Notes under the pieces: generated by a model
What the model was told of the DNA's origin: nothing
The model's input: the letters and a program-made list of their open reading frames with translations, nothing else
The model's database searches: none
NCBI GenBank assembly: GCA_035491955.1
Contig: DATJJU010000001.1
Coordinates: 393 to 64,392, forward strand
Direction of reading: 5' to 3'
Length of the DNA: 64,000 bases
DNA from: Minisyncoccota bacterium
GTDB taxonomy: Bacteria > Patescibacteriota > Minisyncoccia > Phycocordibacterales > UBA9973
Program-made: the position numbers and the translations under genes
Shown here: in pieces, positions 3,839 through 56,145 of the stretch
Numbering within the stretch: position 1 is the stretch's first letter
How the letters are laid out: each line of letters opens with the position of its first letter

Positions 3839-5224
3839 ATGGTAAAGCAGTCAGGACCAGGTAATAACTTGCGCATTCCTCCTCACGATTTGGAGGCTGA
3901 ACAAGCCGTCCTAGGTGCGCTGATGCTTCGTCCTTCTGCTATTCACGATATCATCGATCTTATCGTGCCTGAGATGTTCTATGCTCGCAAGCACAGCATT
4001 CTCTTCAAGACTATCTTGGAGCTTTCTAATAAAAATGAGCCGATTGATGTTCTCTCTGTCGCTTCTCGTCTCAAAGAAAAGAAACACCTCGATGAAATCG
4101 GTGGTAACGCTTACTTGAACGAATTGATGGGCAATGTCCCTTCTACTGTGAACATCCGTCACTACGCTGATATCGTATACAAGAAATATGTTTTGCGTTC
4201 TCTTATCGATGCATCAGAAAATATTTCTACCGTTGCCTATGATCAAAATGACATGGATGTAGCAGACATCATGGATACGGCAGAAAAAGCGATCTTTCGT
4301 ATTTCATCAGGCATGAATGTGAAGAATGCCTTCGTTTCTATCAAAAGCTCTTTGATGGCGACAATGGAAGAGACTATTAAGCTTCATGAGAACAAGGAAG
4401 AAATTCGCGGCGTACCGACTGGTTATGCCGATCTCGACAGTCTCACAGCAGGTTTGCAAAAGTCAGACCTTATTATTCTGGCAGCTCGTCCTAGTATGGG
4501 TAAGACAACCTTCGCTCTTGATATGGCCCGCAATGTAGCGCTCGCCGGCATTCCTGTTGGCATCTTCTCTTTGGAAATGAGCGCGCAACAGCTGGTACAG
4601 CGCATGCTCTCTGCTGAGAGTCGCGTGGATGCGTGGAGTATTCGCACAGGTCATGGCCTGACAGCGCAGCACTTCACTGCCCTTCAAGAAGCAGCCAGCC
4701 GTTTGCAAAAGGCTCCTATCTATATTGATGACCAAGCCGGCAACTCAATCGTTAAAATGCGCTCTGTAGCGCGCCGCTTGAAGAGCGAGCACGGCCTTGG
4801 ACTTATTGTAGTGGACTACTTGCAGCTTATGACTACTAGTAAAAACTATGACAGTATGGTCAATCAAGTGACTGAGATCTCTCGCTCATTGAAACAGCTC
4901 GCTCGTGAGCTTGATGTGCCAGTACTTGCATTGTCACAGCTTTCTCGTGCAGTGGAGTCACGCGGCGGACGCCCTCGCCTTTCAGACCTCCGCGACTCCG
5001 GCTCTATTGAACAAGATGCCGACATGGTCATGTTCATTCACCGTGAAGATCGCTACAAGGAGCAGCACGAAAAGGACAATATCACTGAGATATTGATTGA
5101 GAAGCACCGTAACGGTCCAGTAGGCATGGTTCAGCTTCTGTTTGACGGCAAGACTACTTCATTCTTGAACATGGACAAAGCGCACATGCCTGCCCCAAAA
5201 GCAACCTCACTAGAAGATTTCTAA
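3839..5224 (+). CDS. dnaB: replicative DNA helicase DnaB
   Basis: DnaB N-terminal domain (LPPHDLEAEQAVLGALM), a RecA-like core with Walker A (RPSMGKTTFALD), and motifs H2-H4. The start is moved to the in-frame ATG at 3839, because the track ORF start at 3617 overlaps trpS. Confidence 0.92.
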   Translation: MVKQSGPGNNLRIPPHDLEAEQAVLGALMLRPSAIHDIIDLIVPEMFYARKHSILFKTILELSNKNEPIDVLSVASRLKEKKHLDEIGGNAYLNELMGNVPSTVNIRHYADIVYKKYVLRSLIDASENISTVAYDQNDMDVADIMDTAEKAIFRISSGMNVKNAFVSIKSSLMATMEETIKLHENKEEIRGVPTGYADLDSLTAGLQKSDLIILAARPSMGKTTFALDMARNVALAGIPVGIFSLEMSAQQLVQRMLSAESRVDAWSIRTGHGLTAQHFTALQEAASRLQKAPIYIDDQAGNSIVKMRSVARRLKSEHGLGLIVVDYLQLMTTSKNYDSMVNQVTEISRSLKQLARELDVPVLALSQLSRAVESRGGRPRLSDLRDSGSIEQDADMVMFIHREDRYKEQHEKDNITEILIEKHRNGPVGMVQLLFDGKTTSFLNMDKAHMPAPKATSLEDF

Positions 5225-5225
5225 T

Positions 5226-5834
5226 ATGAATAATGACTCTGTTGATCGGCTCGCGAAGCTATTTCTAAAATTCCCCGGCATTGGCGAGCGTCAAGCTCGT
5301 CGTTTTGCATACTTTATTCTTACGCAGCAAGAAGGCTACGTTGATTCTCTTTCTCGCGCACTGGTATCGGCCCGCAAAAATGCCAACCACTGCAGCAAGT
5401 GTTTGCGTATCTTCGAAGGCAATCCGGGGCTCTGCCAAATATGCAGCGACGAGAGCCGTGATCAAAGCAGTATTATCGTTGTAGAAAAAAGCCAAGATAT
5501 TGAGAGCTTTGCTCGCACTGACTATCACGGACTTTTCTTCGTTCTTGGCGGACTTATTCCTATTGTACAAAAAGATATTATCCAAGGTACTAATGCACAG
5601 AAACTTATTGATCGCATCCAACACGACAGTGCCCAAGGCATATTAAAAGAAACCATCTTGGCATTTCCTATTACACCAAATGGTGAGCATACCGACGGTG
5701 CAGTTCGCGAACTACTCTCTCCTATTGCTGTAAATTTAAAAATCACCTCTCTTGGCCGCGGACTTTCTACCGGCGCAGAGCTGGAGTATGCAGACCCTGC
5801 TTCTTTGGAAGCCTCCCTTAAGAAGCGTGAATAG
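5226..5834 (+). CDS. recR: recombination protein RecR
   Basis: HhH motif (LPGIGERQARR), a C4 zinc finger (CSKC...CQIC) and a Toprim domain. 202 aa. Confidence 0.9.
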   Translation: MNNDSVDRLAKLFLKFPGIGERQARRFAYFILTQQEGYVDSLSRALVSARKNANHCSKCLRIFEGNPGLCQICSDESRDQSSIIVVEKSQDIESFARTDYHGLFFVLGGLIPIVQKDIIQGTNAQKLIDRIQHDSAQGILKETILAFPITPNGEHTDGAVRELLSPIAVNLKITSLGRGLSTGAELEYADPASLEASLKKRE

Positions 5835-13927: not shown

Positions 13928-14188
13928 TTATTTTTTGATAGCACCTTCTTTTATCAACAATGCACGCTTGGCCTCAGAACCACCGCGATTGTAGTTGCCG
14001 ATGCTGCCGTCTGAACGGAGCACGCGATGACATGGCACAGTCGGATCATAGTTCTGTCGCATATAGGTACCGACAGCGCGAGCGGCCTTGGCATTCCCTG
14101 CCTTCTTTGCTACTTCGCCATAGGTCATAGTCTTGCCTTTTGGGATGTTGCGTACCACATCAAGGACTTTTTCTTTGAAGGTTTTCAT
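13928..14188 (-). CDS. MGMT-family DNA-binding domain protein (O6-alkylguanine alkyltransferase C-terminal domain only, active-site PCHRV present)
   Basis: HTH followed by PCHRVLRSDGSIGNY; there is no N-terminal MGMT domain. Start moved to MKTFKEK. Confidence 0.75.
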   Translation of the reverse strand: MKTFKEKVLDVVRNIPKGKTMTYGEVAKKAGNAKAARAVGTYMRQNYDPTVPCHRVLRSDGSIGNYNRGGSEAKRALLIKEGAIKK

Positions 14189-14870: not shown

Positions 14871-14928
14871 GGGTCCACAAGAAAAATCCCTCCATTATTT
14901 CTAACAGAGGGATTTTTCTTGTGGACCC
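14871..14928. repeat. perfect 22-bp inverted repeat (GGGTCCACAAGAAAAATCCCTC / GAGGGATTTTTCTTGTGGACCC, 14-nt loop) whose distal arm contains the last 7 nt of tRNA-Ala
   Basis: Read directly from the sequence: arms at 14871-14892 and 14907-14928. Confidence 0.85.
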
Positions 14929-14994
14929 TAGGAGATTCGAACTCCTGACCTCCTCTTTGCAAAAGAGGCGCTCTACCAACTAAGCTAAGGGCCC
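14922..14994 (-). tRNA. tRNA-Ala (anticodon UGC)
   Basis: Hand-folded cloverleaf with a G3:U70 pair, anticodon loop UUUGCAA and TPsiC loop TTCGAAT. CCA is not encoded. Confidence 0.9.
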
Positions 14995-15081: not shown

Positions 15082-15666
15082 TTATTTAAACTCAAAAAGT
15101 TTATCGCGGAAGTCTTCGATACGACCCTTCTTATCTAGCTGTATTCCCTCCTTTTTATAGAGCGCACGACGCTTGGCTTCGTGTGTACTATCAAACCAGG
15201 CTCGGCCATCAGAGTAGACGATGCGATGAAATGGAATATTCTTCTCCCCTGCTTTGTAGGCTTTGCCGAGAATACCGGTAATACTACGAGACGCCATTGA
15301 ACCACCGCCAGCTGCTCGTGCAATCAGTCCGTACGTTGTAACTTTTCCGGCAGGCACCATGAGCGCCAATTCCACAACACGATCGCTGAATGTTTTCATC
15401 GCAGCAGTATGGTTATTTGATGTATTTTTCATAAGTATTGTTTTTTGTTCTCGCGTAAGCTTTTTTAATTCTGCCTCACGGCTAAGGGCATGTCCTCGAT
15501 CTTTGTGTACTTCATTATATTTCATAATGACCGGCCTGCGAATTTTAGTATACCGAGCACCAGACTTCAGATAGTTATGACTATGGAGGCGTTTCTCTAA
15601 GTCGTTCGTTGAGCCAATATAATACGAGCCATCAGCACATTCCAAAATATACACGTAATACTTCAT
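15082..15666 (-). CDS. fusion protein: N-terminal GIY-YIG nuclease domain (UPF0213/YhbQ-like) plus C-terminal alkyltransferase-like (ATL/MGMT DNA-binding) domain with PFHRIV in place of PCHRV
   Basis: N-terminus reads YYVYILECADGSYYIGSTNDLEKRLHSH; C-terminus reads VPAGKVTTYGLIA...NIPFHRIVYSDG. Start moved to MKYYVY. Confidence 0.75.
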   Translation of the reverse strand: MKYYVYILECADGSYYIGSTNDLEKRLHSHNYLKSGARYTKIRRPVIMKYNEVHKDRGHALSREAELKKLTREQKTILMKNTSNNHTAAMKTFSDRVVELALMVPAGKVTTYGLIARAAGGGSMASRSITGILGKAYKAGEKNIPFHRIVYSDGRAWFDSTHEAKRRALYKKEGIQLDKKGRIEDFRDKLFEFK

Positions 15667-15667
15667 A

Positions 15668-16171
15668 CTACAATACTCTGCTATCGTAGGCCCAATGTAA
15701 TAATGCCTGGCGCTGTTTTGGTCGACATGTCTCTTGCCCACGACGACAATTATTCCTAATTTGCCCTACATGACGAGTCATCATTTTCCACCGCTTAATT
15801 TGTCTTTCATCCTCTTGAGGGATGCGTCGTCCCATATAATAGCGACAATACCATTGAAACCATCCTCGCGGATCATCTTTGTATATCCAGCCGTTCTTTC
15901 GCCAGACAGAAAGCGGTTGCGAAGCATTGACCCCAAAATAGTTCAGTTCTGCATCGTGGCGTTCGTGGCAGAGCTTGGCTTTGGTAAACCAGTCTTTAGG
16001 AAATTCTTCGCGGCAATCGGTCATATACTTGCCGCCAAAAACTCCGAGTTCGAGTATTTCCTTTGGTGTCAGATCGGGCTTGAAGTCAGGGGCAAAATTT
16101 TTCCCTATGGGTTCAATACAATCATAGCTATAGTCTTGTTGCATTAGGTCATTGACTACAACTGTTTTCAT
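15668..16171 (-). CDS. hypothetical Cys/Trp-rich protein (unknown family)
   Basis: About 167 aa from MKTVVV. Conserved-looking segment NYFGVNASQPLSVWRKNGWI...DPRGWFQWYCRYYMGRR. The track ORF extends to a TTG at 16228. Confidence 0.5.
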   Translation of the reverse strand: MKTVVVNDLMQQDYSYDCIEPIGKNFAPDFKPDLTPKEILELGVFGGKYMTDCREEFPKDWFTKAKLCHERHDAELNYFGVNASQPLSVWRKNGWIYKDDPRGWFQWYCRYYMGRRIPQEDERQIKRWKMMTRHVGQIRNNCRRGQETCRPKQRQALLHWAYDSRVL

Positions 16172-16221: not shown

Positions 16222-16347
16222 ATGGCAAAACGAAGCAAAACTATCGGTATTCATCCGAAATCAAACAAATCCCACAAGACCAAAAAGCGTCTTGAGGTCA
16301 AGCGCACAATGCTTGCAGCGAAAAAGACTAGTAAAAAGAAGAAATAA
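16222..16347 (+). CDS. leaderless small hyper-basic peptide (41 aa, MAKRSKTIGIHPKSNKSHKTKKRLEVKRTMLAAKKTSKKKK)
   Basis: TTGTAA-16-TATAAT promoter with the -10 box at about 16209-16214 and the ATG about 8 nt downstream. A strong terminator follows. Too short to appear in the ORF track. Confidence 0.35.
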   Translation: MAKRSKTIGIHPKSNKSHKTKKRLEVKRTMLAAKKTSKKKK

Positions 16348-16350
16348 TAC

Positions 16351-16384
16351 AAAAGCCCCGCCAACATGTTGGCGGGGCTTTTGT
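16351..16384. terminator. bidirectional rho-independent terminator (AAAAGCCCCGCCAACATGTTGGCGGGGCTTTT)
   Basis: Perfect 10-bp GC stem flanked by an A4 run and a T4 run. Confidence 0.8.
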
Positions 16385-16442
16385 ATTATTTCTTATTTGA
16401 CTTTTCTGTAAAAAACAGTAGTTTGAAGAAAAACACATTGAG

Positions 16443-17015
16443 ATGAAATACAAATATATAGTTATTTTTCCGATTCCCGACCCTTATCTGGAGCGGATTA
16501 TAGAGATAATGGATATCATCGCTCTCTATACCGGCATTGAGCCTCCCTACAAAAGACTGGTTCCCCATATCACCTTTCACAGACCGATAGAAAATATTGA
16601 AGAAGAGGTAATAAAAGATTTTGTAAAAAGCATGGTGCTTCAAATGCGAAGAACACGCATTACGATCAGCGATCTGTTTCCTTTTGGAAAACAATACATT
16701 GTTTTCCCGGTTCATGCTACACGAGCAGTAGCAGAATTCTGGGTGGGCATAAATTATTTATTGAGCAGGCTGAAAGAATATGTTCATGGAGAATTCGATC
16801 ATGACAATACGCTTCACATCAGCGTTGCAGAGAAAACTTCTGACGTTTTTGACGAAGTGTGGCCTACTATCAAAAAGATGGTTAGCTTTGATCCGATGAA
16901 TATTCCGGTGGGCAAGATTGCTATTTACCGCAAGCCAATCGATCCAAGTGAAAATGGTAATTGGGAACTTGTCGTGCATTATCTTATTGATTGGAGAAAA
17001 ACAAAAAGCGGCTGA
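16443..17015 (+). CDS. 2H phosphoesterase superfamily protein (LigT/2'-5' RNA ligase-like)
   Basis: Two H-x-T/S-x motifs (HITFH and HISVA) at the appropriate spacing; 190 aa. Confidence 0.65.
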   Translation: MKYKYIVIFPIPDPYLERIIEIMDIIALYTGIEPPYKRLVPHITFHRPIENIEEEVIKDFVKSMVLQMRRTRITISDLFPFGKQYIVFPVHATRAVAEFWVGINYLLSRLKEYVHGEFDHDNTLHISVAEKTSDVFDEVWPTIKKMVSFDPMNIPVGKIAIYRKPIDPSENGNWELVVHYLIDWRKTKSG

Positions 17016-47109: not shown

Positions 47110-49005
47110 TTATTCCAAGACTTTACGTAATGTGTTGTAAGGGATTTCTGCAGACTGTGCTTCAATAGCAGTAGTAGGAGCTGGCGTGGGAGCGGGCTTT
47201 GCTTCTTGAGCTTTAATAGGTTCAGCTGGCTGAGACTGCACAGGAGCTTGCTCTGTCTTTGGGGCTACAGAACCAAGCGCGCCTTGTAGAGCCGCCTTAA
47301 GAAGATCGCGGTTTTTTTCTGTCGGGCCTCGCTCTGCTATTCTCACTGGAGGAATGGCCTCACGCAATGGCTTTTCTCCGCTAAACGGAGTATTTTCTTT
47401 TTGTTTTACTGCTGGTGCAGGGGCTGGCTTTTTTGAAGCATCAATTGATGAAAGGAGGTCATTGAGAGCAGGACTAATTGGTGTTTTTTGTTGTGCGGGA
47501 CGAGAAAGTTTTGATTTGCCGGCAGCAAGCTCTGGGGCTTGTACTTCAGGAAGTCCTGAAGAAAATGCCTTCTTGAAAGGATTATGGGTAGGACTTTTGA
47601 TCGGACGAGGCTGATCAGATGCCGGTCGCGGCGCAGGACGAAATCCCGGCTTTTGAGGGATACTGTTACCAGGCTGATATGATGTTCCAGAAGGCGCTTG
47701 CGCAGGGCCTTTGCCGTACCAATCAAAGATAGCTTTTTCCACCTGGTCTTTTTGGTGCGTAAATAAAGTACGAGAAGATTCAATAACATCATCTCTATAG
47801 CTTATTGATGGACGAGGCGTTGGCGGCAAGGTACGCGCCGAAAACGGCGAAGAGCCCATATCATTGATCAGAAGCGATAAATAAATTTGCGCCATGCCGA
47901 GATTGATAAGATCGTTTCCGCTAAATTGCGGCGCGAATACTTTTTCCAAAAGCTCTGCATCAAGCGGGCCGACACGGAAGCTAATACTAGTACCGACGTT
48001 GCCAAAGACGGCATCGCGAACAGATTCCTCCATTTGTGCTACATATTGATGAGCGATAACCAAAGCCAATTTATATTTTCGAGCTTCGGACAAAATATTG
48101 GCGAATGATTCATTGGCGAACGATTGGAATTCGTCGACGTAGAAATAGAAGTTTGGGAGCTCTGCCAAGCGTGCCGGTGTGGCATCAGCACGGCTCATAG
48201 CAGCCAAGTAGATCTTGGTAATAATCATACTTCCCATAAGCGCAGTGTTTTGTTCGCCAATGCGCCCCTTTGAAAGGTTCACGATCAAGATTTTCTGATT
48301 GTCCATCGCTTCGCGAATATCGAAGCTGGACTTTGGCTGACCAATGATATTTCGAACAAGCGGGTTAGCAGTCAATTGACCGATTTTATTTTGAATAGCG
48401 GCGCCAGCTTCTTGCATGTAGCGGTCACCGTATTTTGCAAACTCTTCCACCCAGAATGCCTTTACGCCAGGATCGGTAGTATTCGCCACAACCTTGTTGC
48501 GGAAATCCTTATCAGAAAGCATGCGGTTCACACCTAGAAGCGTGGCATCAGGATATTCCAAAAGAGCCAGAAGAATATTATTGAGAATATACTCCATACG
48601 AGCACTCCAGGCATCTACCCAGATCTTCTTGAAGGTGCTCATGAGGCCTGAGGCAACGAAGTGACGCTTGTCGGCACCAACGTCCTCTAAGACATTGAAA
48701 GAGATAGGGTTATCAATATCGAATGGCGCGAAGTAAATCACGTCTTTAATACGTTCCTGCGGCACATAGTCCAACATCTTTTCAGCAAAGCTGCCGTGAG
48801 GGTCTAGCACTGCAATGCCTTCACCGCGGACAATATCCTGAATAGCCATATTTTCAAGCAATGTAGATTTACCGACACCTGATTTACCGATGACATACAT
48901 ATGTCGAGTACGGTCGCGACTCTTAATGCCAAAGCGTGCGCGTTGGTTGCGATAGTCAGTCTCGGCGAAATACGTAATGTGTTCCGGATCGTACGGTACA
49001 GTCAT
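47110..49005 (-). CDS. cytoplasmic P-loop ATPase of the TraD/VirD4 (type IV coupling protein)-like FtsK-HerA superfamily, with a Pro/Ala-rich disordered C-terminus
   Basis: Walker A VIGKSGVGKST, a DPHG motif, Walker B YFYVDEFQ, and a T4CP-like AHQ...Q motif. No N-terminal transmembrane helices. Confidence 0.65.
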   Translation of the reverse strand: MTVPYDPEHITYFAETDYRNQRARFGIKSRDRTRHMYVIGKSGVGKSTLLENMAIQDIVRGEGIAVLDPHGSFAEKMLDYVPQERIKDVIYFAPFDIDNPISFNVLEDVGADKRHFVASGLMSTFKKIWVDAWSARMEYILNNILLALLEYPDATLLGVNRMLSDKDFRNKVVANTTDPGVKAFWVEEFAKYGDRYMQEAGAAIQNKIGQLTANPLVRNIIGQPKSSFDIREAMDNQKILIVNLSKGRIGEQNTALMGSMIITKIYLAAMSRADATPARLAELPNFYFYVDEFQSFANESFANILSEARKYKLALVIAHQYVAQMEESVRDAVFGNVGTSISFRVGPLDAELLEKVFAPQFSGNDLINLGMAQIYLSLLINDMGSSPFSARTLPPTPRPSISYRDDVIESSRTLFTHQKDQVEKAIFDWYGKGPAQAPSGTSYQPGNSIPQKPGFRPAPRPASDQPRPIKSPTHNPFKKAFSSGLPEVQAPELAAGKSKLSRPAQQKTPISPALNDLLSSIDASKKPAPAPAVKQKENTPFSGEKPLREAIPPVRIAERGPTEKNRDLLKAALQGALGSVAPKTEQAPVQSQPAEPIKAQEAKPAPTPAPTTAIEAQSAEIPYNTLRKVLE

Positions 49006-54462: not shown

Positions 54463-56145
54463 TTATTTTAAACTCTTCGCAGAAATAATGGCGCGAGCGA
54501 GACGAAGAGTGTCGAAGGTATATTTGCCGTCAAGGTGATTGTAGACCGGAGAAAGAAGCGTGGTATCGCATGAAGCAAAAGCATCTACGATGACAGGTAA
54601 TGCTTTCTCAAGCTTGTCATCAATAAGATGCTCAATATCGTCATATTGTATGCGCTTTAAAAGAATAAGCTTTTCAATATGGTCAAGGATAGTAGTCATA
54701 ACAAGCTTTCGCTCTTTTATAATATCCTTTAACGATTTTTTCTCTAGAAGCAATTCTTTTGTCAGATCAAGCGTATCTTTCTTTTCTATCTTCCCATTTT
54801 TGACTTTCTTTGGATCAAACGTGCCTCCATTAGTAAGAATAAAATTCTTCTGAATTTCTGCCAACTGATCTACTGGCAATTTGGCAAAGACATCTTCAGC
54901 TGATTCAGACTGCTCTCGGAAAGTAACATCTTCCTGCAATATGCGCGGATGCACTTGGAATGTTTGTTCATTCCACCCAGTAAGATAGAGACCGCTCAAT
55001 GTACGCACACGAGAAAGTGCCACATAGCCCTGGCCGTATTCAAAAACTTGCCGCAAATCCATGAGTGCTGTATCCAATGAAAGACCCTGGCTTTTGTGAA
55101 TAGTGATAGCCCAAGCCAAACGAAGCGGTATTTGTGTGATAGACGCACGAATCTTGCCGTCTTCTTCAATACTCCAATCCATCGGTTCAATAGTAATCTC
55201 TTCATCATCCTTAGTGCGAATGATCGGATATTTTGTTCCTGTTTCAAAGCGAACAACGGTGCCTGTCGTACCATTCACAAATCCTTTTTGGGTATTGTTC
55301 TTAGTGCACATAACTACTGCTCCAGTTTTCAGCTCTAGTCGCTCCGGAGAAAGACAGCCTTTTTTCAAACTTTCCACCATACTCTCTCGACCTTTTGTGC
55401 TCATAGTGTATACGAAGGTTGGACCTTCGATAGACTGCAACGCCATTTGATTGATAGCATCAACATCAGCATTGTGAGCAAAGAGCCGTGTCATCTCAGT
55501 ATTTTCGAAGACATCACTTTCATCAATCATACGGTTCTTCAAATGAATAAGGTGATCATCTATTACCGTATTGCGGCGAATAGCTGAGAGGAGCGCCAGA
55601 AAGTTTTCATCACTCTGACGATGTTGTTCTGTGATATAGCACACCAGTGGCCTCATTGTTTGCCAGACTTGTGACTGAAATGCAAACGGTACATTTTCTT
55701 CTTTTCGAGAAATCGGTGGGAGTTGGAAAAAATCACCGACAAGAATAACCTGCAGTCCTCCGAACGGTTCTTCTTTTTGTTTGATGGTGCGACAGACACT
55801 ATCAACGAGATCGAGCGTATAGCCATCGATCATAGAGATCTCATCGATGATTAATATTTTTGTTTTTTGAATGCGGCGCACTAAATATTCTGTGCTGGCA
55901 ATTTTATCCAAATCATACGGTGACAAACTTTTGCGAATGCCGATACCGCTCCATGAGTGAATGGTCTGCCCATGAATATGAGTGGCGGCAATACCAGTGG
56001 ATGCAGTAATAGCAGGCTCTATGCCATGAGCGCGCAGGTATGCCACATACTCATTAATAGTATGCGTCTTCCCTGCCCCCGGCTCCCCTGTCAAAAAGAC
56101 ATTGGCCCCCGTCTTCAATATCGTCAATGCCTTTTCCTGAGTCAT
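54463..56145 (-). CDS. SF1B ATP-dependent DNA helicase, PIF1/RecD-like, with a C-terminal helical extension
   Basis: Walker A GEPGAGKTHT, Walker B ILIIDEISM, and the motifs QLPPI and TIHKSQGLSLD; 560 aa. Confidence 0.85.
   Translation of the reverse strand: MTQEKALTILKTGANVFLTGEPGAGKTHTINEYVAYLRAHGIEPAITASTGIAATHIHGQTIHSWSGIGIRKSLSPYDLDKIASTEYLVRRIQKTKILIIDEISMIDGYTLDLVDSVCRTIKQKEEPFGGLQVILVGDFFQLPPISRKEENVPFAFQSQVWQTMRPLVCYITEQHRQSDENFLALLSAIRRNTVIDDHLIHLKNRMIDESDVFENTEMTRLFAHNADVDAINQMALQSIEGPTFVYTMSTKGRESMVESLKKGCLSPERLELKTGAVVMCTKNNTQKGFVNGTTGTVVRFETGTKYPIIRTKDDEEITIEPMDWSIEEDGKIRASITQIPLRLAWAITIHKSQGLSLDTALMDLRQVFEYGQGYVALSRVRTLSGLYLTGWNEQTFQVHPRILQEDVTFREQSESAEDVFAKLPVDQLAEIQKNFILTNGGTFDPKKVKNGKIEKKDTLDLTKELLLEKKSLKDIIKERKLVMTTILDHIEKLILLKRIQYDDIEHLIDDKLEKALPVIVDAFASCDTTLLSPVYNHLDGKYTFDTLRLARAIISAKSLK

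Follow-up and report, generated by a model that had tools for sequence, protein, structure and literature searches.

A gene from an uncultured small-genome bacterium that joins a GIY-YIG nuclease domain to an alkylated-guanine recognition domain

The window, by which we mean the whole 64-kb stretch of DNA analysed here, comes from an uncultured small-genome bacterium (Paceibacteria) and contains a single gene that encodes both a GIY-YIG nuclease domain and a domain for the recognition of alkylated guanine, the latter of the alkyltransferase-like (ATL) type. The features of the gene and its surroundings are as follows.

15082..15666, minus strand: GIY-YIG-ATL fusion ORF, 194 aa, with its ATG at 15664-15666 and its TAA stop at 15082-15084
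15433..15666, minus strand: minimal Slx1/UPF0213-type GIY-YIG nuclease domain, aa 1-78, with Y6, Y16, R26, H30 and E64
15391..15432, minus strand: junction, formed by the native N-terminal tail of the ATL, aa 79-92, MKNTSNNHTAAMKT
15085..15390, minus strand: ATL domain, aa 93-194, with Y112, R127, P145-F146-H147-R148 and E173
15217..15234, minus strand: PFHRIV motif, with Phe146 at the alkyl-acceptor Cys position
15668..16171, minus strand: X167, 167 aa, no family assigned, upstream of the fusion
16343..16390, no single strand: strong bidirectional terminator-like hairpin, the upstream boundary of the X167-fusion transcription unit
14921..14994, minus strand: tRNA-Ala(TGC), 87 nt downstream of the fusion
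13928..14188, minus strand: 86-aa C-terminal-domain-only alkyltransferase that keeps PCHRV, in the same neighbourhood

The mechanically called reading frame extends to a GTG at 15741. Because this extension overlaps the upstream gene and the homologues begin M-x-Y-x-V-Y-I-L, the coordinates given in the first-pass annotation, which start at the ATG, are correct. The NCBI annotation contains only the C-terminal part, a product of 116 aa whose start is the M79 codon (15430-15432), and this codon is also the ancestral ATL start codon. The stop codon of X167 lies 1 nt before the fusion ATG, so the two genes probably form one operon, and there is no terminator-like site between the fusion and tRNA-Ala(TGC). 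The 86-aa alkyltransferase nearby is probably catalytic, judging by its intact motif. The locus is a syntenic housekeeping region that adjoins the dcw cluster; no uvrABC genes were found within the 64 kb of the window, a statement that applies to the window and not to the whole genome.

The first-pass annotation had proposed a GIY-YIG nuclease followed by an MGMT-fold domain of the ATL type that lacks the active-site Cys, and this two-domain observation is confirmed by Pfam and Foldseek, both halves scoring far above chance. Taken separately, each half exceeds its Pfam cut-off: PF01541 (GIY-YIG) covers residues 2-74 with an E value of 1.1e-16 and 61.3 bits against a cut-off of 22.6, and PF01035 (DNA_binding_1) covers residues 93-175 with an E value of 3.5e-12 and 46.4 bits against a cut-off of 27. 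The AF2 model of the fusion is confident (pLDDT 92.9, pTM 0.67).

The best PDB sequence matches of the nuclease half are 1ywl (7e-15) and 1zg2 (1e-11), and a family profile search gives UPF0213 at 1e-24, followed by Slx1 (2e-3 to 9e-3), EndoII (0.05) and I-TevI (0.5). The top Foldseek match is again 1zg2, with Slx1 entries matched too. The expected catalytic Tyr, Tyr, Arg, His and Glu are all present: Y6, Y16, R26 and E64, together with H30, are invariant in the five fusion clusters that we found and show at least 99% conservation across 261 homologues. Like the UPF0213/YhbQ/YazA proteins, this half has about 80 aa, the conserved Y, Y, R, H and E and no auxiliary domain; unlike our fused copy, those proteins normally stand alone. 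The literature we searched contains no demonstrated activity for any UPF0213 protein and no fusion of UPF0213 to ATL or to MGMT.

The nuclease had been described at first as "UvrC/YhbQ-type". The second half of that label stands, the lineage being Slx1/UPF0213 (YhbQ), but a UvrC type was rejected: the best matches are UPF0213 and Slx1, no UvrC match appeared in the PDB sequence or profile searches with this half, and the protein ends after the ATL domain. The N-terminal GIY-YIG domain of UvrC, responsible for the 3' incision in nucleotide excision repair (NER), belongs to the same superfamily and shares the same catalytic logic, but the fusion protein is of a different lineage, has no conserved Asn after the catalytic Glu and lacks the UvrBC-interaction, RNase H-like and HhH domains. 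The conserved positions past E64 are K68, R72 and K75. An Asn had been listed among the catalytic residues to be expected; since the Slx1/UPF0213 (YhbQ) lineage lacks the conserved Asn C-terminal to the catalytic Glu (PMC1564403), that expectation does not apply to this protein.

Residues 144-150 of the C-terminal half read I-P-F-H-R-I-V, so that PFHRIV stands where catalytic enzymes have PCHRV. Its PDB sequence matches are to Atl1 (3gva, 3e-5) and vpAtl (2kif, 5e-5), whereas true MGMTs match at 0.036 or worse, and the best of these AGT matches is the C119F mutant of SsOGT. In Foldseek the predicted structure of this half reaches TM scores of 0.71-0.75 to 2kif, 3gva and 3gx4, with the fold of the AGT C-terminal domain and no AGT N-terminal domain. 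A catalytic MGMT was rejected, there being no active-site Cys and the TIGR00589 score of 22 bits falling below the cut-off of 46.4. By sequence and predicted fold, this half is thus closer to Atl1 and vpAtl than to the catalytic alkyltransferases.

The MGMT-family features that would serve lesion binding are in place, namely the helix-turn-helix (HTH) Tyr, the Arg finger and the His, Arg and Glu of the ATL pocket; Y112 and R127 align with Atl1 Y25 and R39 (the equivalents of hAGT Y114 and R128). In these respects the domain resembles the known ATLs (S. pombe Atl1, E. coli eATL/YbaZ and V. parahaemolyticus vpAtl; COG3695), which likewise consist of the AGT C-terminal fold only, carry an aromatic residue at the acceptor Cys and keep the HTH Tyr, Arg finger, His-Arg and Glu. 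It differs in being covalently joined to a nuclease and in having Phe where classical ATLs have Trp. Phe had been called a hallmark of ATLs; the replacement of the Cys is borne out, but the classical residue is Trp, and Phe is the norm in the Patescibacteria subfamily (F in 215, W in 8 and Y in 3 of 230). The Arg finger of ATLs is Arg in the fusion protein too, but the subfamily has Gln at this position in 60% of cases (Q 139, R 90). These genomes carry ATL as a core gene family that is nearly single-copy.

In the closest relatives the GIY and ATL halves are separate genes that overlap by 14-23 nt, and in the three split lineages the ATG of the ATL gene falls on a Tyr codon in the GIY tail. 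The conserved Glu codon and the ATL ATG are 18 nt apart in the fusion gene and 19, 22 and 22 nt apart in the split loci; ahead of the ancestral ATL start codon the fusion gene is shorter by 1 nt, and the halves thereby share one frame. For each half, the fusion gene groups with L169, L001/2 and L003-5 in one clade, in which ours is the sole fused member, its fused state being a single-base frame difference. Within this clade the pair is adjacent although the flanking genes differ between loci, and synonymous sites are saturated (pS 0.78-1.08, pN 0.14-0.22). No remnants of a GIY gene were found upstream of ATL in loci that lack the GIY gene. The join is real but rare, and it derives from a one-base frame change in an overlapping gene pair.

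At least three further independent GIY-to-ATL fusions exist (P0003/P0004, P0002 and P0005), and the nearest relatives of each of their halves are stand-alone genes. A single origin for all fusions was rejected, since the nearest-neighbour analysis places the clade of our gene, P0003/4, P0002 and P0005 apart for both halves. All five fusions keep the catalytic and binding residues, which are also conserved across 230-261 homologues. P0003 and P0004 are both fused and share 71% identity, with pN values of 0.24 in the GIY half and 0.11 in the ATL half against pS values of 0.63-0.77. Such independent and long-lived fusions elsewhere show that the fused state can be functional. We also found MGMT-GIY fusions (P0250 and P0276), an ATL-to-GIY gene pair (L054) and an MGMT-to-GIY gene pair (L011), and the partners fused to mini GIY domains further include YgjP, SprT, RNase H, DUF1905, M23 and CYTH. 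The library searched holds 1.84 billion representatives, in which fusions are hidden under single-domain representatives, and the query profile favours two-domain matches; for these reasons the partner frequencies are not used as statistics.

The analysis shows the identity of the domains, the conservation of key residues, purifying selection on each half, a gene pair that has been maintained and fusions that recurred. On this basis we tentatively propose lesion-directed nicking, the best-supported mechanism for the fusion and one that is quite possibly correct. One polypeptide would combine a Cys-less ATL sensor of DNA damage with a minimal Slx1/UPF0213-type GIY-YIG domain that has no DNA-binding module of its own. 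The ATL half would bind duplex DNA through its helix-turn-helix, insert Arg127 and flip a lesion of the O6-alkylguanine type into a pocket that Phe146 closes; as the acceptor Cys is absent, alkyl transfer would be impossible. The tethered nuclease (Y6, Y16, R26, H30 and E64) would then nick a strand close by, and the nick could serve as an entry point for helicase, polymerase and ligase in excision repair. In related genomes the two proteins come from the translationally coupled, overlapping gene pair and would act as a complex; in the lineage of our bacterium a net loss of 1 nt just before the ATL start codon joined them. The lesion specificity, the nuclease activity and the coupling of recognition to cutting are what we infer. 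Known contacts of ATLs with UvrA and UvrC and the archaeal EndoV fusions (PMC10779285) speak for this mechanism. Against it speak the rarity of the link, the unrelated contexts and fusion partners of the mini GIY genes, the tRNA-Gln neighbourhood common to both families, the single-base difference behind the fused state, the Gln at the Arg-finger position in 60% of the subfamily, the lack of a demonstrated UPF0213 activity in the literature searched and the RNA role hinted at by methyltransferase fusions (PMC1564403). The arrangement is reminiscent of eukaryotic Slx1-Slx4, where a DNA-binding partner both activates a minimal GIY-YIG nuclease and directs it to its target, Slx1 being weak until that partner binds it (PMC7017083), and the nuclease half is related to Slx1 by profile and fold. 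In our protein, unlike Slx1-Slx4, the partner would be a lesion sensor and not a scaffold, the RING/PHD finger is absent, and the proposed target is a lesion, whereas Slx1 cuts branched DNA.

The main rival to lesion-directed nicking is that independent, unrelated neighbours were joined by a 1-nt deletion in a neutral or near-neutral accident, with each domain working alone and nothing gained; the ATL would pass lesions to UvrABC and the mini GIY-YIG would act as it does elsewhere. We consider this explanation unlikely, though it deserves serious weight. A single-base frame change was sufficient because the genes already overlapped, and elsewhere the ATL and GIY genes are mostly unlinked. Fused clusters number 5 among 726 ATL-family matches; in 80 GTDB species loci of ATL, a GIY gene lies directly upstream in none and downstream in one, while ATL lies within 2 kb in 2 of 80 GIY-centred metagenome loci. 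A widespread conserved GIY-ATL operon was thus rejected (0/80, 2/80), the adjacency holding only in the clade of our gene. GIY genes and ATL genes both tend to lie downstream of tRNA-Gln, and this shared neighbourhood raises the chance of accidental juxtaposition. The GIY domain has been joined to many unrelated partners, and read-through from the neighbouring MGMT gene of L169 into a membrane protein (319 aa) shows that implausible fusions of this sort do occur in these lineages or assemblies. In addition, the AGT-EndoV protein of Ferroplasma has been described with both alkyltransferase and endonuclease V activity (PMC10779285). An accident does not readily account for an overlapping pair that has stayed strictly adjacent past synonymous saturation while the genes on both sides changed, for a GIY-ATL order that at least four independent lineages acquired or retained, or for the purifying selection on both halves of P0003/P0004.

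It is also conceivable, though improbable, that the GIY half is not a DNA-repair nuclease but an RNA- or tRNA-directed enzyme, or a semi-selfish mini-gene that often relocates, and that its adjacency to ATL is incidental. Among its 80 closest stand-alone relatives, 28 have tRNA-Gln upstream (within 200 nt in 17), and the surroundings of the mini GIY genes are otherwise unrelated, 143 neighbours falling into 130 clusters. Bacterial Slx1-like GIY-YIG domains have been described in fusions to COG4123 and TrmH methyltransferases, as well as to HsdR, and from the methyltransferase fusions the authors proposed a role in RNA (PMC1564403). GIY genes are listed among the horizontal transfers out of Patescibacteria (PMC12455944), and mini GIY genes occur in phages too; an origin of the fusion from phages was rejected, phage records giving GIY-only matches and none with the fusion. 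An 80-aa domain of this kind has, however, no recognition module able to support homing, the locus is a housekeeping region by the dcw cluster, the MGMT, ATL and SprT/YgjP partners are DNA-related, and fold and profile link the domain to the DNA nuclease Slx1.

We regard an assembly or sequencing artefact, in which the real genome would have two overlapping genes like its relatives and one base would be missing from the assembly, as very improbable. The first-pass annotation had itself raised the possibility of a fusion artefact, and here the evidence is mixed. The closest relatives do have two overlapping genes, a net 1 nt within an A/T-rich stretch separates the fused state from the split one, and NCBI annotates only the ATL from its ancestral start codon. 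Nevertheless, a JGI contig of 26.4 kb that was assembled separately encodes the identical 194-aa product within the same order of genes, other samples supplied the four remaining fusion clusters, and the inferred site has no long homopolymer. Equally remote is a modification-dependent (type IV-like) restriction activity, in which the ATL pocket would read modified guanine in foreign DNA for the nuclease to cut: type IV enzymes do use fusions of a base-reader domain to a GIY-YIG nuclease (PMC11037411) and the GIY half weakly matches the defence models MADS5 (0.0038) and PDC-S14 (0.0034), but PADLOC gave no significant match (best PDC-S14, E 0.0034, 14.5 bits), the context is housekeeping and syntenic and not a defence island, the GIY-ATL pair is vertically inherited, and ATL belongs to the core of these genomes.

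The idea that recognition and incision are coupled is not new. Known ATLs have no nuclease activity and depend on UvrA/UvrC or on eukaryotic NER; they deliver lesions to the NER machinery and interact with both UvrA and UvrC, and UvrC is the nuclease at which ATL-bound lesions are thought to arrive by way of UvrA (PMC10779285). In archaea, fusions of EndoV to an AGT (Ferroplasma acidarmanus) or to an ATL have been described, and the published idea is that they mimic the hand-off from ATL to NER (PMC10779285). Our protein resembles them in logic and not in membership. In both, an AGT-fold domain that recognises alkylguanine is fused to an endonuclease, but here the partner is a GIY-YIG of the Slx1 lineage and not EndoV, the order of domains is possibly different, the host is a bacterium (Patescibacteria), and the fusion arose from an overlapping two-gene operon. 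It is a new bacterial version of the sensor-nuclease fusions already noted in archaea.

The hand-off of ATL-bound O6-alkylguanine to an endonuclease is still argued from UvrA/UvrC interactions and the archaeal ATL-EndoV fusions. With the sensor and the GIY-YIG domain in one chain of 194 aa, and with natural split versions available, the coupling of recognition to incision would become testable with a small recombinant protein and a few point mutants. If the fusion is neutral, it is a clear example of how an overlapping gene pair becomes a fusion protein by a single-base change, and of an annotation that misses a fusion. The protein would also offer the first functional handle on the widespread and uncharacterised UPF0213/YhbQ mini-nucleases. 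A broader joint reading, which we hold to be rather doubtful, is that the protein is a self-contained lesion-sensor-nickase in which O6-alkylguanine licenses incision without UvrABC, and that the 80-aa Slx1-like GIY-YIG is a plug-in nicking module for different DNA-damage sensors. Were this true, the ATL, catalytic MGMT and SprT/YgjP-type protease partners would reflect a theme of alkylation and DNA-protein-crosslink repair, the small-genome bacteria would have a new short route of alkylation excision, and the orphan UPF0213/YhbQ family would have its first function.

The open reading frame of interest encodes a two-domain protein and lies as follows:

15082-15666, minus strand (ATG 15664-15666, TAA 15082-15084): GIY-YIG-ATL fusion ORF of 194 aa (ORF call)

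The Pfam search placed both domains above cut-off, PF01541 (GIY-YIG) at residues 2-74 (E 1.1e-16; 61.3 bits vs 22.6) and PF01035 (MGMT DNA-binding domain) at residues 93-175 (E 3.5e-12; 46.4 bits vs 27). With the motif I-P-F-H-R-I-V at residues 144-150, they bear out the GIY-YIG plus MGMT-fold protein described in the first-pass annotation. Its coordinates were also right: a mechanical ORF reaches a GTG at 15741, the added stretch runs into the upstream gene's 3' end, and the homologues all start M-x-Y-x-V-Y-I-L. The NCBI annotation is a 116-aa "MGMT family protein" from M79 (HTH92874.1; 15082-15432) that leaves out an intact, in-frame GIY-YIG domain; in the JGI annotation all 194 aa are one "putative endonuclease". 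The AlphaFold2 model, based on an 87-sequence alignment, was confident (pLDDT 92.9, pTM 0.67). Foldseek matched its first domain to 1zg2 and 1ywl in the PDB and its second to 2kif, 3gva and 3gx4 (TM 0.71-0.75), ahead of human, archaeal and mycobacterial AGTs; this search found no solved chain spanning both domains.

The N-terminal half had been described as a UvrC/YhbQ-type nuclease, and only the YhbQ part of that description holds. Among all PDB sequences it matched EF2693/1ywl (7e-15) and BH0048/1zg2 (1e-11), the two solved UPF0213 proteins, and a profile of 40 homologues gave ~1e-24 for 1ywl/1zg2, 2e-3 to 9e-3 for Slx1, 0.05 for T4 EndoII and 0.5 for I-TevI, with UvrC absent among its PDB matches. 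A UvrC-like assignment was rejected on these matches, and the half is YhbQ/Slx1-like. Dunin-Horkawicz et al. (PMC1564403) placed 1ywl and 1zg2 among the bacterial members of the Slx1 lineage, a minimal GIY-YIG form without the C-terminal Asn that characterises the UvrC lineage. In the proposed Tyr/Arg/Glu/Asn catalytic set the Asn is thus missing, as expected for this lineage, whereas Tyr, Arg and Glu are present: Y6, Y16, R26, H30 and E64 are invariant in five fusions and conserved to 99% or more across 261 homologues.

The C-terminal half scored 3e-5 against S. pombe Atl1 (3gva) and 5e-5 against Vibrio vpAtl (2kif); among alkyltransferases the best score, 0.036, was that of the Sulfolobus enzyme's C119F mutant. 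It is clearly closer to Atl1/vpAtl than to any catalytic alkyltransferase and, with Phe at the Cys position, was correctly assigned to the ATL type. Y112 and R127 align with Y25 and R39 of Atl1 (the HTH tyrosine and arginine finger), and H147, R148 and E173 are conserved. Its family is a large Patescibacteria group of stand-alone proteins of 105-120 aa, often labelled "alkylated DNA nucleotide flippase Atl1" by JGI; the GTDB species collection has relatives in 285 stretches. Among 230 distinct sequences, a set skewed to F by the IPFHRIVY pattern used in the genome scan, the Cys position holds F in 215, W in 8, Y in 3 and C in 4, the last being catalytic MGMT-type sequences caught by the ATL profile (e.g. 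the MGMT halves of fusion cluster P0250 and locus L011). Since F holds the position in 215/230, Phe is the subfamily norm and stands, as another aromatic residue, in place of the Trp of classical ATLs; loss of the Cys does mark an ATL, but Phe is not the hallmark it was taken for. The HTH arginine finger is considered a universal feature of AGTs and ATLs. At its position (R127 in the window) the same 230 sequences have Q in 139 and R in 90, a variability unexpected for such a residue that sets the subfamily apart from textbook ATLs. The subfamily is also fused behind the TfoX N-terminal domain PF04993 in at least six clusters (P0009, P0036, P0040, P0048, P0243, P0259), outnumbering the GIY-ATL fusions.

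The nearest relatives of the fusion are two separate genes per locus, in three lineages:

L169: split genes; ATL ~72% and X167 neighbour (a 167-aa protein of unknown family) 87% identical to the window's
L001/L002: split genes; GIY 78% and ATL 76% identical to the window's halves
L003-L005: split genes; GIY 64% and ATL 75% identical to the window's halves

Here the GIY-YIG gene has 81-85 aa (77 aa as called in L001) and overlaps by 14-23 nt the ATL gene behind it, which has 110-114 aa. In every one of the three lineages the ATL starts in the +1 frame, its ATG falling on a Tyr codon in the tail of the GIY gene (..TATG..). This ATG is 19, 22 and 22 nt from the conserved Glu codon (R-E-K/Q-K) in the split loci; in the window the distance is 18 nt, so that the window's GIY frame enters the ATL at its ancestral Met, M79, which is why NCBI calls a protein from there. 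The old GIY tail is readable in another frame of the window (Y-E-K-Y-I-K-stop). The apparent linker is the ATL's own native N-terminal tail, and the fusion in this genome derives from a single-base change.

Several patterns argue that the pairing is meaningful. The window, L169, L001 and L003 are close to one another in both halves by nearest-neighbour analysis, and both halves are under selection (pS 0.78-1.08, saturated, and pN 0.14-0.22 among pairs of this clade). The genes on either side of the pair vary by locus and the GIY-to-ATL overlap is kept throughout; upstream is X167 directly (window), X167 and an ICMT-like gene (L169) or X167 and a zinc-finger gene (L003), and downstream are tRNA-Ala, two genes and SIMPL, or sigma-70, or a resolvase, or SIMPL directly. 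Four further fusion clusters (P0002-P0005) have 48-57% identity. P0003/P0004, P0002 and P0005 group with different stand-alone GIY and ATL genes in the nearest-neighbour analysis and therefore represent separate fusion events; one shared origin of all fusions was rejected, as the nearest neighbours of both halves differ. P0003 and P0004 have the fusion in common at 71% identity (pS 0.63-0.77), and their lower pN (0.24 GIY, 0.11 ATL, 0.42 linker) means that the fused state can persist under selection. MGMT(PCHRV)-GIY fusions occur in the reverse order (P0250, P0276), Ogt, ATL and GIY are consecutive genes in L054, and in L011 an MGMT gene overlaps the GIY gene that follows it.

Against these patterns stand counts that favour a neutral joining of neighbouring genes with independent functions, an explanation we consider rather unlikely. 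The gene pairing is not widespread: a GIY gene lies directly upstream of the ATL in 0 of the 80 GTDB species loci of the nearest ATL genes and directly downstream in 1, and an ATL lies within 2 kb in 2 of the 80 metagenome loci of the nearest stand-alone GIY genes and is adjacent in none. By rough estimate, the 8 GIY genes in ~440 kb of ATL flanks predict ~2 chance adjacencies per 80 loci (1 observed). L008, L015 and L079, with an ATL 72-75% identical to the window's, have neither a GIY gene directly upstream nor a remnant. GIY neighbours are nearly all different (143 in 130 clusters), and other proteins carry the domain joined to YgjP-like and SprT-like peptidases, RNase H, DUF1905, peptidase M23, CYTH and a type I S subunit (P0268, P0272, P0273, P0282, P0285, P0295, P0317, P0332, P0338); two GIY copies are inserted in one type I restriction S subunit. 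The recurring SprT/YgjP and MGMT/ATL partners could reflect a DNA-damage theme.

In 28/80 loci the mini GIY has a tRNA-Gln gene (CTG or TTG) upstream (L089-L168; 17 within 200 nt, mostly on the same strand), and in 18/80 (L008-L087) such a gene lies 52-2332 nt upstream of the ATL. The only other tRNA species in these ~700 kb were tRNA-Ala, located 3' of the ATL, and a lone tRNA-Met. This points to a tRNA-Gln-linked neighbourhood or hotspot in Paceibacteria, and a neighbourhood favoured by both genes raises the odds of accidental juxtaposition. That the GIY half really serves RNA/tRNA or self-propagation is improbable. The fusion occurred in none of the phage records searched. Some loci have a small SWIB/MDM2-like gene directly upstream of the ATL (L012, 2501-2758), and L090 has the order GIY, SWIB, ATL.

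An artefact is very improbable. The frame does differ from that of the split relatives, which would fit an artificial fusion of two genes, but other fusions exist and the 194-aa product is also found on a separately assembled 26.4-kb JGI contig with identical gene order, which makes an assembly error unlikely. In L169, the orthologue of the window's 86-aa alkyltransferase (4345-5304) reads through into the homologue of its 245-aa membrane/secreted protein (319 aa), an implausible fusion; read-through joins do occur in these lineages or assemblies.

The fusion has an unremarkable chromosomal setting that shares synteny with L001 and L169, with Pfam neighbours SIMPL, PBP transpeptidase, GreA, MraW, PurL and M23 peptidase, and DnaB and TopA farther away. 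Its ATG is 1 nt after the X167 stop, and no terminator-like site separates it from tRNA-Ala, 87 nt downstream. Other features of the window are:

13928-14188, minus strand: C-terminal-domain-only alkyltransferase, 86 aa, keeps PCHRV
16343-16390: strong bidirectional terminator-like hairpin, 5' of X167
16443-17015, plus strand: 190-aa ORF with weak 2H-phosphoesterase / 2'-5' RNA ligase-like matches (Pfam 0.0016, below cut-off)
47110-49005, minus strand: TrwB/T4SS coupling-protein-like ORF
54463-56145, minus strand: PIF1-family helicase with HTH_40 tail

The 190-aa ORF is kept beside the ATL in L015, without X167 or GIY between. The TrwB-like ORF and the helicase, ~5.5 kb apart, may belong to a mobile or DNA-transfer module with no relation to the fusion. 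Around the fusion there is no sign of a defence island or mobile element and PADLOC gave no significant match; a type IV-like restriction function is highly doubtful.

ATLs bind and flip O6-alkylguanine without repairing it and hand it off to NER via UvrA/UvrC or eukaryotic machinery (PMC10779285); a search confined to the 64-kb window found no uvrABC there. Alone, Slx1 is a weak nuclease; binding of its partner Slx4 activates and targets it (PMC7017083). In the fusion, the ATL half would lend DNA and lesion binding to a mini-nuclease without a DNA-binding module of its own, and lesion recognition would position the nick made by the GIY half. Such lesion-directed nicking is, tentatively, the most economical reading. 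The analysis shows what the two domains are, that their residues are conserved, that both are under selection, that the overlapping pair is kept and that fusions recur; specificity for the lesion, cutting by the GIY half and the coupling of the two are inferred. The Ferroplasma AGT-EndoV and archaeal ATL-EndoV proteins, read as direct sensor-nuclease fusions (PMC10779285), likewise join an ATL or AGT to a nuclease but use EndoV, not GIY-YIG. The ATL-nuclease concept is already published for archaea with a different nuclease, and the GIY-YIG version here is rare. A 2006 census of GIY-YIG fusions lists only methyltransferase and HsdR partners (PMC1564403), and our full-text literature search found no description of a GIY-YIG-ATL architecture. 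With this fusion, both the coupling of sensor to incision and the role of the orphan UPF0213 family become open to direct test.
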